Positions 3,307-29,447 of a stretch of DNA of 31,086 nt are shown here, piece by piece. Below the pieces are notes generated by a model. It made no database searches. It saw only the letters and a program-made list of their open reading frames with translations, and had not been told where the DNA came from. The stretch is from a virus (Duplodnaviria > Heunggongvirae > Uroviricota > Caudoviricetes): the IMG/VR virus record IMGVR_UViG_2540341091_000008, one strand, 5' to 3'. The first letter of the stretch is position 1. Each line of letters starts with the position of its first letter. The translations under genes were made by a program, and so were the position numbers.

Positions 3307-3882
3307 CTACGGCAGTGCTGGCCATTCAATATCCTGTGCAGTTGACGTATCAACACGGTTCAGCAATACCCGATACTTTTTCCATGCTTCCAGCAACGAG
3401 ATTTCTTCCTCCGTTGCAATTTCCAGATCTGCAGCATCCTGAAGCGGCGCAATATGCTCACTGGCTACCTGCATCAGGTTGTTTTTTGTTTCTTCCGCCT
3501 CCCGGATCCGGAACAGTTTTTCTGCTTCCGTATCCTTCACCCAGGCTGTGCCGTTCCACTTCTGAAACTCCCCTTCCGGGGATAACCAGGTGACATTTTC
3601 CGGTAATGGGCCAAGTTCAGAAATAAATAACGCGTCGCCGGAAGCCACGTCATAGACGGTTTTACCCCGATGATCTTCAACGAGATGCCACGATGCCTCA
3701 TCACTGTTGAAAACAGCCACGAAGCCAGCCGGAATATCTGGCGGTGCAATATAGGAACTGTTTGCTGGCAGACCTGTATGAGGCGGAATATATGCGTCAC
3801 CTTCACCAATAAATTCATTAGTTCCGGCCAGCAGATTATAAATTTTTATGGTCCGTGGTTGTTCACTCATTCTGAATGCCAT
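3307..3882 (-). CDS. tfaQ: tail fibre assembly protein, 191 aa
   Basis: Tfa-family sequence; ATG overlaps the stop of the upstream tail-fibre ORF (TAATG). Confidence 0.9.
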
Positions 3883-12129: not shown

Positions 12130-12400
12130 GATGTTACCGTAGTATGTGAGTATCCATCGAATAGATACCAAGCAAAAAAGCTCCCGAAGGAGCCTTCATT
12201 TTCACTTTTTTAAATCCAACGACAGACGGCTGGCATTTAAGTATTGTGAAATATTATCAAATGTAATCATCATTGATTTACAAAAGATACATTTTGCCCC
12301 GAAAGGATTCATGTCAGAAACATCAAAAGATGATGTTCTATACTGGGAACCATGACAACACGGGCATCTAAAGTGAATATGGTTTGTAATATTGTCTACC

Positions 12401-12613
12401 TCAAAGCGCCACTACATGAACAGCGGCAGGACCTTTAGGTCCGTTCTCAATACCAAATTCAACTTCCTGATTCTCAGTTAATGTTTTGAAATCGTTGCTC
12501 TGAATTGCTGAGAAATGGACAAACACATCTTTGCTGCCATCTTTCGGCGTGATGAAACCAAAACCTTTTTCAGGGTTAAACCATTTCACTAAACCAGTCA
12601 TTTTGTTAGACAT
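12401..12613 (-). CDS. cspI: cold shock protein CspI, 70 aa
   Basis: Cold-shock domain with RNP motifs KGFGFI and VFVHF. Confidence 0.95.
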
Positions 12614-12976
12614 AATTATTACCTTTTGAAGAAATTAGCCCTTGGGCAGAATGGTCCGAAAAAAAATATCAGAGAGAAAAACCAACAAGGAAATCTCAAG
12701 AGGTACAAATAATAAAATTATAACAATGACTGCTTCAGATAAATTTGTAACAAACCAGAACACCATTAACGCATGATTAACCACCCATAGCAAGGATTAC
12801 TTTTGTAAAGAAAAACACAGCAATGAAAGAATAGCTTTATTTATTAATAATAACGTGTCATTCTGATTAAGACCTTTTATCTTACCCTTAAGATTTCAGG
12901 AATTTTGGCTCATGGAAGAGTCCTTTTTATTTAAATTTTACATTCCGCGATGTAAATGTTCCGATTTAATATTACC

Positions 12977-15006: not shown

Positions 15007-15285
15007 GATTGTGGTGCTTTTTGTGGGAGTCATCCACTTACGCACTTTGTTTTGCCATGCCAGCAGTTAGCTTCTGCTGTAAAACTATTCATGCAGCAAA
15101 CCTGCACTTCACCACAATGGTTAGCATACTTTTCCTGATTAAGATTTTGCCAAATATGCTGGCCATTGTTTCATGTATTGGACCTCCTTAATTTTTATTA
15201 AAGAAATCCAATATTCACTACTCTGTCCGTATCTCTACTCAGGCATCAGCCTTCTTCGTTATCGTATACAGACGAGCGATGAATT

Positions 15286-15501
15286 TTAATCAGTAATGAT
15301 GACATTTGCTGCTGCAGGACCTTTAGCACCACTCTCTATAGAGAAGGTAACCTTTTGACCTTCAAATAAGGTTCGATAATTATCATTCTGAATCGCAGAA
15401 AAATGCACAAACACATCTTTACTACCATCAACAGGAGAAATAAAGCCGAAACCTTTATCAGCGTTAAACCATTTTACTAAACCAGTCATTTTATTTGACA
15501 T
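15286..15501 (-). CDS. cspB: cold shock protein CspB, 71 aa
   Basis: Cold-shock domain; matches CspB as recalled. Confidence 0.95.
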
Positions 15502-15801
15502 TCTACATTCCTTAACTTGAGCCTTTCGGCATAAATGGTTTGCATAACAGAAACGACTTCGTACTTAATTGGAGAGACTCAAAGAAGGAATAAGTGAATA
15601 ACACCTGAAATGAGAACTGCTTTAGTAAACTACTTCGTATATCGTCTGTTCTTCAAACCGACGCAATCATTAACGCATAGTTGAACATATGAAGCAATGT
15701 TTATTTTAGACATCCAGCCATCTTCAACCCCATCAAAAAACTATAGCTTTCTTCAGGAACGTGTGTATAGTGCGCCAAGTTATCAGTATTAAGGAATTTT
15801 T

Positions 15802-18989: not shown

Positions 18990-19145
18990 TTACTCCTCAG
19001 GTTCGTAGACTGTGAAGACAGCGACCTCCGTCTGGCCGGTTCGGATTCGTACCTCGCAGAGGTCTTTCCTCGTTACCAGTGCCGTCACTATGACGGTTAA
19101 ACAGATGACGATCAGGGCGATTAACATCGCCTTTTGCTGCTTCAT
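18990..19145 (-). CDS. hokD: Hok-family type I toxin (HokD/RelF type), 51 aa
   Basis: MKQQKAMLIALIVICLTVIVTALVTRKDLCEVRIRTGQTEVAVFTVYEPEE; one TM plus conserved C-terminus. Confidence 0.9.
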   Translation of the reverse strand: MKQQKAMLIALIVICLTVIVTALVTRKDLCEVRIRTGQTEVAVFTVYEPEE

Positions 19146-19356
19146 AGCCTGCTTCTCCTTGCCTTTTGGCACGTAAGAGGCTAACCTAGATTTGCCGTTC
19201 ATAGATTGAGCCTCAGATTAATGTTAAGCGTCTTGCAGGACGCGTAATGTTAACTGGGGCTTTTCTCTATCTGCCTTTGGTGTTCATGCCTGAGACAGAT
19301 AGCCTCAAGCACCCGCAGCCATTCTACTTAACTCCCGTCACCTGGCCAATATAAAA

Positions 19357-24719: not shown

Positions 24720-25139
24720 ATGGACAAATATGAATTTAGACGACAGCAACTCATCAAAATTCGTGATGAGAAATGCGATGGTAAAGCGGTTAACGTGGCC
24801 AGAAAGATCGGGCGCGAGCCTTCTTATGTATCAAGAATGTTGTACCCAGAGGGGAAAAAGGGAAAAAAACGGATCGCTGATGATATGGTGGAGATTATCG
24901 AAGAGTCCTTTGGGTTACCCCGGGGATGGATGGATGGTATCGTTTCATCATCAACGAACACAGCCTCCAGTTATGAAACAAGGGTTCTAACGCCACGACA
25001 ACGTATTTTTTTAGATCTCTTAGACGAACTGCCAGAAAGTGAAGCGGATAACTTATTAAAAACTCTTGAAGAGAAAAAACAGTATTACAATATGATCTAC
25101 GAAGAAATCCGTAAAAAGAAAGCACAAAACGCATCATAG
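24720..25139 (+). CDS. prophage repressor (DicA/CI-type HTH), 139 aa
   Basis: HTH (AVNVARKIGREPSYVSRML); divergent from the Cro-like gene; no SD before the ATG, compatible with leaderless translation as for lambda cI. Confidence 0.75.
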   Translation: MDKYEFRRQQLIKIRDEKCDGKAVNVARKIGREPSYVSRMLYPEGKKGKKRIADDMVEIIEESFGLPRGWMDGIVSSSTNTASSYETRVLTPRQRIFLDLLDELPESEADNLLKTLEEKKQYYNMIYEEIRKKKAQNAS

Positions 25140-25181: not shown

Positions 25182-25218
25182 TACCCATGGGTATTTACTT
25201 TTTAAATACCTATGGGTA
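25182..25218. promoter_or_regulatory. pair of 12-bp palindromic sites (TACCCATGGGTA and TACCTATGGGTA), candidate operators of the dicB-operon promoter
   Basis: Perfect and near-perfect palindromes 25 bp apart, overlapping a possible promoter (TTTACT, 17 bp, TATCCT). Confidence 0.4.
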
Positions 25219-25719: not shown

Positions 25720-25938
25720 ATGCAGAAACGAGAACCCGTCATCATCGCGCCAGACTATACCAATGATGAACTTTATGAGTGGATGCGCCAGAAAATTAAT
25801 GCAGCGCAGGATCTGAAATGGGCTAATGAAGTCAGGGCTAAGCAGGCTGAAAATCTGTCCTCTCTGGAGCAGGATATCACCAATCTGGAAAAAGCAGCGG
25901 CATTAACCATTGCCAGAATGATTACATACCCGCGTTAA
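25720..25938 (+). CDS. ydfC: YdfC-like protein, 72 aa
   Basis: AGGAA SD; size and position match ydfC. Confidence 0.7.
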   Translation: MQKREPVIIAPDYTNDELYEWMRQKINAAQDLKWANEVRAKQAENLSSLEQDITNLEKAAALTIARMITYPR

Positions 25939-26279
25939 TAGCTAACCAACGAAGCTAAGGTTGGTAATTAAGGAGTTCTCCACGGGTAAGGTGGAGTGCT
26001 TGCGCCGGACACGGGTGAGCATCCGGCACTGACAGTTTACTGAAAGGATATTTCCCTGAAAAGTCAGACCATAACGCGAAAGCGCACGGCGAGGTAGCTG
26101 GTTCATAGATAGCCTGTCGTTAAATTTTCGTCGACCGTGCGCTTCCGGTTGTGGCAATCCGCGAAATGGCGCGGCGGTAAGTATGGCGGGGTTATTCCTT
26201 CCCCCGTTGAGGACACCGGGTTGTCAGGTTGACCATACGCTTAAGTGACAACCCCGCTGCAACGCCCTCTGTTATCAAT

Positions 26280-26332
26280 TTTCTGGTGACGTTTGGCGGT
26301 ATCAGTTTTACTCCGTGACTGCTCTGCCGCCC
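26280..26332 (+). ncRNA. dicF: DicF small regulatory RNA (53 nt, U-tract to about 26337)
   Basis: UUUCUGGUGACGUUUGGCGGUAUCAGUUUUACUCCGUGACUGCUCUGCCGCCC matches DicF as recalled; ends in a GGCGG/CCGCC hairpin plus U-run, immediately upstream of dicB. Confidence 0.8.
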
Positions 26333-26342
26333 TTTTTAAAGT

Positions 26343-26488
26343 GAATTTTGTGATGCGGTGAATGCGGCTGAGCGCACGCGGAACAGTTAAAACCAAAAAC
26401 AGTGTTATGGGTGGATTCTCTGTATCCGGCGTTAATTGTTAACTGGTTAACGTCACCTGGAAGCACCAGGCACCGCATCACAAAATTC
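26343..26488 (+). repeat. 18-bp perfect inverted repeat (GAATTTTGTGATGCGGTG / CACCGCATCACAAAATTC) enclosing 110 nt between DicF and dicB
   Basis: Exact reverse complements at 26343..26360 and 26471..26488. Confidence 0.8.
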
Positions 26489-26506
26489 ATTGTTGAGGAC
26501 GCGATA

Positions 26507-26695
26507 ATGGAAACGTTATTACCAAACGTTAATACGTCTGAAGGTTGTTTTGAAATTGGTGTCACTATCAGTAACCCTGTATTTACTGAAGATGCCATTA
26601 ACAAGAGAAAACACGAACGGGAGCTATTAAATAAAATATGCATTCTTTCAATGTTGGCCCGTTTACGTCCGATACAAAAAGGATGCTGGCAATGA
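26507..26695 (+). CDS. dicB: cell-division inhibitor DicB, 62 aa
   Basis: METLLPNVNTSEGCFEIGVTISNPVFTEDAINKRK... matches DicB as recalled; GAGGA SD. Confidence 0.85.
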   Translation: METLLPNVNTSEGCFEIGVTISNPVFTEDAINKRKHERELLNKICILSMLARLRPIQKGCWQ

Positions 26696-26883: not shown

Positions 26884-26975
26884 AACAGTTCCGTAATAAA
26901 CATCCGATTTCATTCTTATATGCCAGCAATGGCAGGGATTTGTTCACCCTTAAATCTGTAATGAGGTAAAACAAA

Positions 26976-29447
26976 ATGAGTAAAGTCTTTATTTGCGCCG
27001 CCATTCCGGACGAACAGGCAATAAAGGAAGAAGGTGCCGTCGCTGTAGCCACTGCCATTGAAGCCGGTGATGAACGTCGCGCCCGCGCAAAATTTCACTG
27101 GCAATTCCTGGAACATTATCCGGCTGCTCAGGACTGCGCTTATAAATTTCTTGTTTGCGAGGATAAACCCGGTATACCCCGCCCTGCCCTCGATTCCTGG
27201 GATGCTGAATATATGCAGGAAAACCGCTGGGATGAGGCGTCTGCTTCCTTTGTCCCGGTCGAGACTGAATCCGATCCGATGAACGTCACTTTTGACAACC
27301 TAGCCCCTGAAGTACAGAACGCTGTCATGGTTAAGTTCCACACATGTGAAAACATCACTGTTGATATGGTGATTAGCGCACAGGAATTGTTGCAGGAAGA
27401 CATGGCAACATTCGACGGCCATATCGTTGAAGCGTTGATGAAAATGCCAGAAGTTAACGCTATGTATCCGGAGCTTAAGCTGCATGCCATCGGGTGGGTT
27501 AAGCATAAATGTAAGCCTGGTGCCAAATGGCCCGAAATTCAGGCAGAGATGCGCATCTGGAAAAAACGTCGCGAAGGTGAACGCAAGGAAGCCGGAAAAT
27601 ACACGTCTGTTGTTGATCTCGCCCGCGCCAGAACCAATCAACAGCACACTGAAAATTCAACAGGAAAAATCAACCCGGTCATTGCTGCCATTCATCGCGA
27701 ATACAAGCAGACATGGAAAATACTGGATGACGAACTGGCCTACGCTCTCTGGCCTGGTGATGTGGATGCCGGAAACATTGACGGCAGCATCCATCGCTGG
27801 GCAAAAAATGAAGTTATCGACAACGACCGCGAAGACTGGAAGCGTATCTCGGCATCAATGCGCAAACAGCCTGATGCCCTTCGCTACGACCGCCAGACTA
27901 TTTTTGGCCTTGTCCGTGAACGTCCGATCGACATTCACAAAGACCCTGTGGCACTGAACAAATACATTACTGAATACCTGACTACAAAGGGCGTGTTTGA
28001 AGATGAAGGAACAAATCAGAGCGCAACTGATACTCTCTCGTCGCCAGTACCAGAAACTGATGCAGTGGAAACGGCAATTCCGGACAACGAAAAAACCGAA
28101 TGCAAAGTGGAAGTCGAACCATCTGTAGAACGTGAGGGGCCGTTCTACTTCCTCTTCACCGACAAGGATGGCGAAAAATACGGTCGCGCAAACAAACTTT
28201 CTGGTCTGGATAAGGCGCTGTCTGCTGGGGCTACTGAAATCACGAAAGAAGAATATTTCGCCCGCAAAAACGGTACATACTCAGGTTCACAACAAAATAC
28301 TGGTGCATCTGACACGACCGCACAACCAGGGTCAGTAAAAGTTACCGCTGACGAAGTAAACAAAATTATGCAGGCAGCCAATATCAGCCAGCCTGACGCC
28401 GATGAACTGCTTGCAGTATCACGTGGTGAATTTGTTGAAGGGATTAGCGACCCGAATGATCCGAAATGGGTTAAGGGGATCCAGACCCGCGATTCTGTGA
28501 ACCAGAACCAGCAAGAAACGGAACAGAACGACCAGAAAGCGGAACAAAACAGCCCAAATACGCAACAAAACGAGCCAGAAACGAAACAACCTGAACCAGT
28601 AGTGCAACAGGAACCGGAAAAGATCTGCACCGCCTGCGGTCATAGCGGTGGCGGCAACTGCCCTGATTGTGGTGCGGTGATGGGTGACGCAACATACCAG
28701 GAAATATTCGATGGAGAGAATCAGCCTGAAGTTCAGGAAAATGATCCGGAGGAAATGGAAGGCACTGCGCATCAGCACAAGGAGAACACTGGCGGCAATC
28801 AGCATCATGCCAGCGATAGTGAAACTGGCGAGGCGTCAGATCCCTTAATTAAGGCGAACGGTCATCATAATCTCACATCCACCAGCAGAGCGGGGATTCA
28901 TCTGATGATCGACCTTGAAACCATGGGAAAAAATCCCGATGCCCCGATTATCTCAATAGGTGCAATATTTTTCGATCCGCAAACCGGAGATATGGGACCG
29001 GAATTTAGTAAGACTATCGATCTGGAAACTGCTGGCGGAGTCATTGATCGGGACACCATTAAATGGTGGCTTAAACAATCACGCGAAGCGCAATCTGCCA
29101 TTATGACCGATGAAATCCCGTTAGATGATGCACTGTTACAATTGCGGGAATTTATCGACGAAAACTCCGGTGAATTTTTTGTTCATGTCTGGGGAAATGG
29201 AGCCAACTTCGACAACACGATTTTGCGCCGTTCATACGAACGGCAGGGGATCCCCTGCCCGTGGCGTTACTACAACGATCGCGATGTACGCACAATCGTT
29301 GAGCTGGGGAAAGCCATAGACTTCGATGCCAGAACGGCTATTCCATTCGAAGGTGAGCGCCATAATGCACTTGATGACGCCCGTTACCAGGCAAAATACG
29401 TTTCAGCTATCTGGCAAAAACTGATCCCGAGTCAGGCTGATTCTTAA
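26976..29447 (+). CDS. ydfE: full-length YdfE-like protein, 823 aa, with C-terminal DEDDh (DnaQ-like) 3'-5' exonuclease domain
   Basis: GAGGT SD; C-terminal motifs IDLETMG (Exo I), WGNGANFDNTIL (Exo II), HNALDDARYQAKY (Exo III); internal CTACGH...CPDCG zinc-ribbon-like segment and Q/E-rich linker. Confidence 0.8.
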   Translation: MSKVFICAAIPDEQAIKEEGAVAVATAIEAGDERRARAKFHWQFLEHYPAAQDCAYKFLVCEDKPGIPRPALDSWDAEYMQENRWDEASASFVPVETESDPMNVTFDNLAPEVQNAVMVKFHTCENITVDMVISAQELLQEDMATFDGHIVEALMKMPEVNAMYPELKLHAIGWVKHKCKPGAKWPEIQAEMRIWKKRREGERKEAGKYTSVVDLARARTNQQHTENSTGKINPVIAAIHREYKQTWKILDDELAYALWPGDVDAGNIDGSIHRWAKNEVIDNDREDWKRISASMRKQPDALRYDRQTIFGLVRERPIDIHKDPVALNKYITEYLTTKGVFEDEGTNQSATDTLSSPVPETDAVETAIPDNEKTECKVEVEPSVEREGPFYFLFTDKDGEKYGRANKLSGLDKALSAGATEITKEEYFARKNGTYSGSQQNTGASDTTAQPGSVKVTADEVNKIMQAANISQPDADELLAVSRGEFVEGISDPNDPKWVKGIQTRDSVNQNQQETEQNDQKAEQNSPNTQQNEPETKQPEPVVQQEPEKICTACGHSGGGNCPDCGAVMGDATYQEIFDGENQPEVQENDPEEMEGTAHQHKENTGGNQHHASDSETGEASDPLIKANGHHNLTSTSRAGIHLMIDLETMGKNPDAPIISIGAIFFDPQTGDMGPEFSKTIDLETAGGVIDRDTIKWWLKQSREAQSAIMTDEIPLDDALLQLREFIDENSGEFFVHVWGNGANFDNTILRRSYERQGIPCPWRYYNDRDVRTIVELGKAIDFDARTAIPFEGERHNALDDARYQAKYVSAIWQKLIPSQADS

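Follow-up and report, generated by a model that had tools for sequence, protein, structure and literature searches.

The spacer between ydfC and dicB is very probably an intercistronic processing region of the polycistronic dicBF mRNA, assembled from four modules: an upstream hairpin (module A), a structured domain (module B), the DicF sRNA and an element closed by a long helix. All coordinates below refer to the window, the whole stretch of 31,086 nt that was analysed. In the mechanism we propose, transcripts from dicBp would end at the DicF terminator (26333-26337) or continue past it. RNase III would cut module A (26069-26154) to leave a stable 190-nt precursor composed of module B and DicF, and an RNase E cut at 26279/26280 would then give the active 53-nt DicF. 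In read-through RNA, 26333-26360 would pair with 26471-26499 over about 28 pairs, including a 19-bp perfect core, and enclose a folded domain of 110 nt. A left-arm RNase III cut near 26351 would generate the 72-nt DicF, and a right-arm cut near 26481 would detach the dicB-ydfD mRNA, with about 25 nt of leader, from the RNA upstream. The DicF terminator would act as the attenuator for dicB, and the repeat as an RNase III substrate specific to read-through transcripts; a consequence of the helix for dicB translation or stability may follow.

RNase III sites are familiar from phage polycistronic mRNAs, as in the T7 early region and the lambda N-leader, and long-range processing stems are familiar from pre-rRNA. 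The proposed dicBF arrangement resembles the T7 and lambda sites in placing a duplex of at least 20 bp between cistrons, whose cleavage frees functional RNAs and sets the next 5' leader, and it resembles pre-rRNA in building the duplex from sequences that flank a folded domain. It would differ from all of these in that the upstream product is a regulatory sRNA and that the duplex needs terminator read-through. The original prediction is correct apart from small details, and its interpretation repeats what is published for the 97.6%-identical K-12 locus. The DicF mechanism has been textbook material since 1990, and the earlier reading is confirmed as sound. Our comparative additions are modest: cross-genus covariation, kinship with STnc100, a fixed place before toxic genes and the unannotated module B.

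The region corresponds to the dicBF operon of a Qin-type lambdoid prophage, with the gene order ydfA, ydfB, ydfC (25720-25938), DicF, dicB (26507-26695), ydfD and an 823-aa exonuclease-like ORF. The ydfC stop lies at 25938 and the dicB ATG at 26507 (not 26508), with 568 nt between them. Subtracting 1,623,102 from an MG1655 coordinate gives the window coordinate, which places MG1655 dicF (1649382-1649434) at 26280-26332 and the dicB start (1649609) at 26507. Over 25900-26560 the sequence is 100% identical to the chromosome of the bovine E. coli EC42405, and a match is present in 4737 of the 5426 complete E. coli genomes. The Qin dicBF spacer of E. coli K-12 is the same locus, sharing gene order, DicF, the hairpins and the repeat. 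The two differ in the repeat core, which is a perfect 19 bp in the window whereas it contains two G-U pairs in K-12, and in the downstream 823-aa ORF, which is intact in the window whereas its K-12 counterpart is cut by IS2. This ORF (26976-29447, plus strand) is annotated ‘exonuclease’, and its C-terminus appears DEDDh-exonuclease-like by eye.

Several other features of the window were recorded in passing. A 16-pair palindrome, TACCCATGGGTATTTACT...AAATACCTATGGGTA, spans 25182-25218 (plus strand) between a repressor-like gene (24720-25139) and ydfA and may be an operator or a terminator. The annotation of the immunity genes in the window differs from K-12 dicA/dicC. Further Rfam matches on the minus strand (3341-3539, 12374-12759, 15270-15662 and 19140-19314) represent IS009, two cspA-type thermoregulator leaders and the sok antitoxin RNA, which is typical Qin-prophage content.

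It had been proposed that the roughly 560 nt between ydfC and dicB hold no convincing ORF. Plus-strand ORFs within the gap reach at most 31 aa, except for a 97-aa in-frame GTG extension of dicB, in which the Pfam DicB domain is confined to the last 62 aa. On the minus strand, an ORF of 71 aa (25942-26157) is called in part by PGAP in EC42405 as a 54-aa hypothetical protein (WP_001700701.1; 25942-26106, minus strand, antisense to the spacer). A Pfam search gave no match for the 71-, 51- and 201-aa minus-strand ORFs, and among 16 distinct homologues of the 71-aa ORF nearly every DNA variant alters the protein. We therefore find that the claim stands; a protein-coding gene in the spacer was rejected on these two grounds, and the antisense ORF WP_001700701.1 is probably spurious. 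The description of the segment as GC-rich holds only mildly: its 50.8% exceeds the window mean of 46.3% but reaches just the 73rd percentile of equal-sized windows, and only 25990-26300 attains 54.7%. RNA folding bears out the structured character that had been predicted, with z = -4.8 for 25939-26510, well below shuffled sequences. ARAGORN detected no tRNA-like or tmRNA-like RNA in 25900-26600, and Rfam searched at E up to 10 returned no family for 25940-26280.

The spacer and its flank resolve into the following features, all on the plus strand.

25939-26058, plus strand: 5' part of the spacer, with predicted hairpins only (about 25945-25965, 25990-26026 and 26029-26067, in MFE and centroid folds).
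26069-26154, plus strand: module A, a long hairpin whose lower stem comprises about 22 bp; fold of -37.4 kcal/mol.
26158-26270, plus strand: module B, a conserved structured RNA and the body of the 190-nt precursor; no Rfam family.
26280-26337, plus strand: DicF sRNA and terminator; the 53 nt are 26280-26332 and the U-run 26333-26337 (Rfam RF00039).
26342-26360, plus strand: left arm of the repeat; the helix extends outward to 26333, and the published 3' end of the 72-nt DicF falls at about 26351 (PMC5069750).
26361-26470, plus strand: interior of the element, 110 nt, with a weak hairpin (26364-26379), a variable middle and two 3' hairpins.
26471-26489, plus strand: right arm; the helix extends to 26499, with a predicted partner cut by RNase III near 26481/26482.
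26495-26499, plus strand: GAGGA, the Shine-Dalgarno sequence of dicB, paired in the fold with the U-run of the terminator (26333-26337).
26507-26695, plus strand: dicB, 62 aa, from the annotation (Pfam DicB, E = 6e-37); the gene served by the spacer leader.

The 5' part, 25939-26058, is a mosaic and the variable portion of the spacer. Homology in other E. coli genomes starts at 25958/25959, 26001 or 26059, and these breakpoints indicate that the conserved unit begins just before the upstream hairpin 26069-26154.

The presence of DicF with its terminator, as predicted, is confirmed by Rfam: RF00039 matches 26281-26332 over its full model (positions 1-52 of 52) and, at 76.7 bits, clears the gathering score of 48, and the interval agrees with the position of MG1655 dicF. 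The 3' intrinsic terminator, GGCGG...CCGCC followed by CUUUUU, occupies 26294-26337, and the RNase E-type 5' end at 26279/26280 lies in an A/U-rich single-stranded stretch, between AUCAAU and UUUCUGG. In K-12, the 53-nt DicF results from Rho-independent termination together with an RNase E cut at its 5' end. Two accounts (PMC5069750, PMC9438474) state that RNase III acting on the full-length operon mRNA creates an alternative 3' end and thereby a 72-nt DicF, for which both cite Faubladier et al. 1990; a literature search on the 72-nt species found nothing besides PMC5069750. Ragunathan et al. 2023 confirmed both a 190-nt form of DicF, for whose 5' end RNase III is required, and a 53-nt form that requires RNase E, and found no internal promoter (PMC10448788).

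From the 3' end of DicF (26332-26337), 190 nt reach back to 26143-26148, in the 3' strand of the hairpin 26069-26154. Module A is therefore likely the RNase III substrate that provides the 5' end of the 190-nt precursor, with a cut that this arithmetic places near 26143-26148. Its lower stem is kept over 20 pairs in 36 variants, with a hypervariable apex, and in Rac-SA53 and phiSTEC1589 the module is joined directly to a DicF-like terminator. The ends calculated for the 72-nt and 190-nt species together imply that DicF is flanked by two RNase III substrates, with the inverted repeat downstream of it and, upstream, a hairpin to which the original prediction drew no particular attention. Termination and RNase E, not the inverted repeat, account for the abundant 53-nt DicF. 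That the segment is a hub releasing DicF thus agrees with experiments on the near-identical K-12 locus.

Ragunathan et al. also report a cut at 813/814 and transcripts of 1,146 and 1,608 nt (PMC10448788), which we placed on the window by assuming one common origin. If that origin is shared, simple arithmetic would end the 1,146-nt species at about 26475-26480, inside the right arm, whereas an end at the DicF terminator would give about 1,003 nt, and the 1,608-nt species at about 26937-26942, at a terminator-like hairpin (26921-26934) after ydfD.

The original prediction described an 18-bp perfect inverted repeat enclosing 110 nt in front of dicB. The repeat and its spacing were right, and the length was one pair short: the perfect core is 19 bp, TGAATTTTGTGATGCGGTG, in which 26342-26360 pairs with 26471-26489 across 110 nt. 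With loops of up to 300 nt allowed, no other perfect inverted repeat in the 31-kb window is as long, the runner-up measuring 13 bp; the best repeat per shuffle was typically 11 bp and at most 16 over 200 shuffles. Once G-U pairs are admitted, the helix grows to about 28 pairs (26333-26360 with 26471-26499). Folding of 26333-26520 gave z = -6.4, and the repeat is paired in both MFE and centroid structures. The two 3' hairpins of the interior comprise a 10-bp stem at 26428-26454 and a 5-bp stem at 26456-26470 (CCUGG-AAGCA-CCAGG).

Its length suits the helix to RNase III, which acts on about two turns (at least about 20 bp) of near-uninterrupted dsRNA: 19 perfect pairs lie within about 28. The module A hairpin, at about 22 pairs, is of suitable length as well. 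Counted from 26280, 72 nt end at 26351, the tenth nucleotide of the 19-nt left arm, so that the 72-nt DicF, by arithmetic on its published length, would end inside the 26342-26360 helix. RNase III products usually carry a 2-nt 3' overhang. From this usual stagger we predict the partner cut in the right arm at about 26481/26482, which would leave dicB a leader of about 25 nt. In the RNA-seq data of Gordon et al. 2017, an rnc-dependent site at MG1655 1649470, labelled ‘dicF-dicB’ and marked as known, has 26 reads in the rnc mutant against 0 in the wild type, at coarse resolution (PMC5371410, Table S1). This position, where the rnc-dependent ratio of reads is highest, converts to 26368, just inside the element. 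The proposal that the long duplex is an RNase III substrate thus agrees with both the K-12 72-nt DicF and the rnc site, and with the compensatory variation of the helix. Of the ‘processing and attenuation hub’ that had been envisaged, processing is supported; attenuation is the job of the DicF terminator, and no U-run comes after the repeat.

A second terminator or attenuator before dicB would place a stable helix immediately upstream of a toxic gene, just where this one is found. However, the right arm is followed by TTGTTGAGGA (UUGUUGAGGA) rather than a U-run, the terminator scan reports none there, and an interior of 110 nt is far beyond intrinsic-terminator geometry. The sequence itself contradicts this reading, which is highly implausible, and it likewise contradicts any reading in which the repeat acts as DNA.

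The latter would make the 19-bp perfect arms around 110 bp either the terminal repeats of a miniature mobile element or a protein-binding palindrome, and the occurrence of the element in many phage contexts would suit it. The pattern of variation is that of an RNA helix, however. Viral contigs and phages supplied 21 distinct copies of the Qin and Rac types, in which pairing of the 28-pair helix is 96% complete. Where only one side has changed in these close copies, U-A alternates with U-G or C-G with U-G, so that pairing is kept only in the plus-strand RNA, and two pairs show double changes. Such G-U-type and compensatory variation preserves plus-strand pairing and not the identity of the arms. 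When genomes were scanned with a pattern, the element turned up in Escherichia, Shigella, Citrobacter, Klebsiella, Raoultella, Enterobacter and Pseudescherichia. The arms differ strongly in sequence among these genera, yet pair over about 19-24 bp; in a Klebsiella example, CAGGCUUUGCAAU.CGGUG pairs with CACCG.AUUGCAAAGCCUG. Nor is the element flanked by a direct duplication, with TTTTTAAAG on one side and TTGTTGAGG on the other. The mobile-element reading was rejected on the lack of a target-site duplication and of arms conserved as DNA, and an action of the repeat at the DNA level can scarcely be credited.

Covariation was assessed in an alignment of 13 diverse Enterobacteriaceae copies. The outer helix shows changes on both sides in 11 of 21 pairs, with 93% of cells paired. 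Over the whole structure, 18 pairs carry double changes, compared to a shuffle mean of 11.0, and none of 500 shuffles reached 18; slid-register controls gave 2-8 such pairs. Both hairpins directly before the right arm covary as well. The comparative sequence data thus indicate clear selection on the structure of the long helix in different genera. Sequence conservation is strong within the interior of the element too, which tells against the processing reading, since a plain RNase III site would have no need of it.

What follows the element shows a constant arrangement. Wherever the downstream ORF of a copy was read out, it begins 36-48 nt beyond the first nucleotide of the right arm, and the genes in this position are small and often toxic. 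The downstream gene is dicB in Qin types, kilR in Rac-SA53, Shigella phage 75/02 and others, and the TerB-like tciA in P7 and D6, with other small ORFs elsewhere. In phiSTEC1589 the downstream ORF is kilR-like, and the GenBank record mislabels it as ‘cell division protein FtsZ’. At locus L076 it is an Ash/Rha ORF preceded by isrK and C4 RNA matches. We note that this combination of isrK and C4 antisense-RNA matches with an Ash/Rha ORF after the element (L076, 5482-5912, minus strand; also L242 and L267) forms a P1 immI-like antirepressor module. The element is preceded by a DicF-type terminator in the E. coli phages, but not in Klebsiella, Raoultella and Pseudescherichia.

The position next to the ribosome-binding site raises the alternative that the helix is mainly a translational gate, hiding the dicB Shine-Dalgarno sequence in read-through mRNA with RNase III incidental. 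The toxic DicB would then be made only once the structure had opened, and the toxic or regulatory nature of the downstream genes (dicB, kilR, the TerB-like tciA, the Ash/Rha ORF) would suit such control. GAGGA (26495-26499) indeed pairs with the U-run 26333-26337, and in partition-function folding of the Qin type its probability of being unpaired rises from 0.18 in read-through RNA to 0.79 after the predicted cut (0.72-0.79 without the left arm). These pairs are weak, however, three being G-U and two A-U, and the dicB AUG stays in a local hairpin in both states. In the Rac/kilR leader, moreover, the Shine-Dalgarno sequence lies outside the helix and the prediction reverses, from 0.50 to 0.11. 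Masking was therefore rejected as a conserved role of the helix, being predicted for the Qin type and reversed in the Rac type. What is conserved is the long helix itself, together with its constant placement immediately 5' of the ribosome-binding site. We regard a primarily gating function as unlikely, and favor the processing of read-through transcripts.

The element also has relatives among known RNAs. A permissive Rfam scan (1-kb search) aligned 26330-26539 with STnc100 (RF02076) over model positions 1-206 at 38.7 bits and E = 1.1e-6, short of STnc100 membership at a gathering score of 47. Rac-type, P1, P7 and D6 copies likewise score below the gathering score, and other loci reach 52-165 bits. 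A motif scan of viral contigs revealed a large superfamily with a GGUG...CACC closing stem and a CACCNGGAGGCACCNGG hairpin, and we compared the architecture, that is the motif and the closing stems, over 116 distinct copies. Similar to STnc100/PasD, the window element has the GGUG...CACC closing stem, an AGGCA-loop hairpin before it and a further hairpin 5' of that. It differs in its closing helix, of about 20-28 bp against 7-10 bp in bona fide STnc100, and in its setting: it lies directly on the ribosome-binding site in an early operon, whereas STnc100 copies occupy non-coding stretches, where many are arranged in tandem close to phage tRNA genes. Bona fide STnc100 closing stems covary among themselves (GCAUGGUG/CACCAUGC, UUGCGGUG/CACCGCAA and others). 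The window element belongs to a GGUGAAUGCGGCU subfamily that includes the long-helix copies, and the members of this subfamily in P1, P7 and D6 have closing stems of only about 8-9 bp. A 2026 preprint ties STnc100 to the PasD prophage sRNAs and does not mention DicF (bioRxiv 10.64898/2026.05.13.724894).

This kinship is the ground for another alternative, in which the repeat-bounded element is a trans-acting sRNA of the STnc100/PasD type, either excised as about 130 nt (26352-26481) or separately expressed. The helix would then be the closing stem of the family and its processing the way in which the sRNA is made. The match to STnc100, although sub-threshold, is full-length; the GGUG/CACC closing stem and the CACCNGGAGGCACCNGG hairpin are shared; and the interior is highly conserved in sequence. 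STnc100 and PasD are moreover reported as prophage sRNAs, with Hfq/RIL-seq targets for PasD (bioRxiv 10.64898/2026.05.13.724894). Against this, the match remains below the Rfam gathering score, true STnc100 closing stems measure only 7-10 bp, and the element always abuts a ribosome-binding site, the dicB ATG following the right arm by 18 nt. No promoter-like or terminator-like site was found on the plus strand of 26333-26520, and no U-run follows the right arm. Finally, interior reads appear in the rnc mutant and none in the wild type, which, at low counts, is the opposite of what a stable excised product would give. Together we judge such an sRNA quite improbable, and retain the processing element as the preferred reading.

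Module B (26158-26270) is the least described part of the spacer. Its proposed elements are P1 (26159-26174), a variable hairpin P2 (26187-26206) and P4 (26218-26254), with a possible pseudoknot between 26176-26186 and 26233-26241, modeled around a core of GUAUGG (26181-26186) and CCAUAC in the P4 loop (26233-26238). In alignment A4, which holds 57 distinct copies, the model is 96% paired. P4 and the loop pairing have one covarying pair each, and P2 differs in sequence by clade and is self-complementary in each; since the search pattern fixed part of the 3' strand, this covariation evidence is moderate only. An apparent compensatory change in P4 of one copy (L151) was out of register and was discarded.

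Module B is also present in Stx2c phages, cdtI, Ayreon, 2H10 and P1/P7, with copies at L004 1510-1600 (P1), L007 90-207 (P7) and L009 1501-1623 (an Stx2c phage). The copies in P1 and P7 directly follow the C1-controlled ban promoters, and the P1 record marks a ‘dicF-like region’ that overlaps module B. In 47 of 48 distinct contexts, a GGCGG...CCGCC terminator with a U-run follows 50-90 nt after module B, and the intervening ‘seed’ varies. In the MFE structure of the 190-nt RNA, module B pairs long-range with the DicF terminator, a pairing that seems, from an alignment judged by eye, not to be conserved in P1. We also considered a HK022 put-like antiterminator, and HK022 is not among the best 60 of 61 BLAST phage records. 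The lack of a HK022 match among these records and the apparent non-conservation in P1 led us to drop the antiterminator idea as unsupported.

Taken together, these comparisons allow a broader reading, which we put forward tentatively as a possibility rather than an expectation: the DicF locus could be a portable three-part phage RNA cassette, with module B as its 5' domain and the long-helix element described above. Module B may then be an undescribed, possibly pseudoknotted domain placed before DicF-like terminators with varying seeds, and could be a scaffold for a phage sRNA family or a cis element that affects read-through. The long-helix element, for its part, may be a diverged branch of STnc100/PasD specialised as an RNase III-cut leader, which may couple terminator read-through to toxic early genes (dicB, kilR, tciA, Ash/Rha) across the Enterobacteriaceae. 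The comparative findings, if followed up, could explain how phages keep division inhibitors silent before terminator read-through, and could give a function to a widespread and uncharacterised RNA family.

We also note that bona fide STnc100 copies occur beside phage tRNA genes in tandem arrays of 2-5 units per approximately 1 kb (L020, 2265-3380; L088, 4349-5513 and 8357-8555; L102, 4210-4887). Their arrangement points less to single sRNA genes than to repeated units that serve in processing or punctuation.
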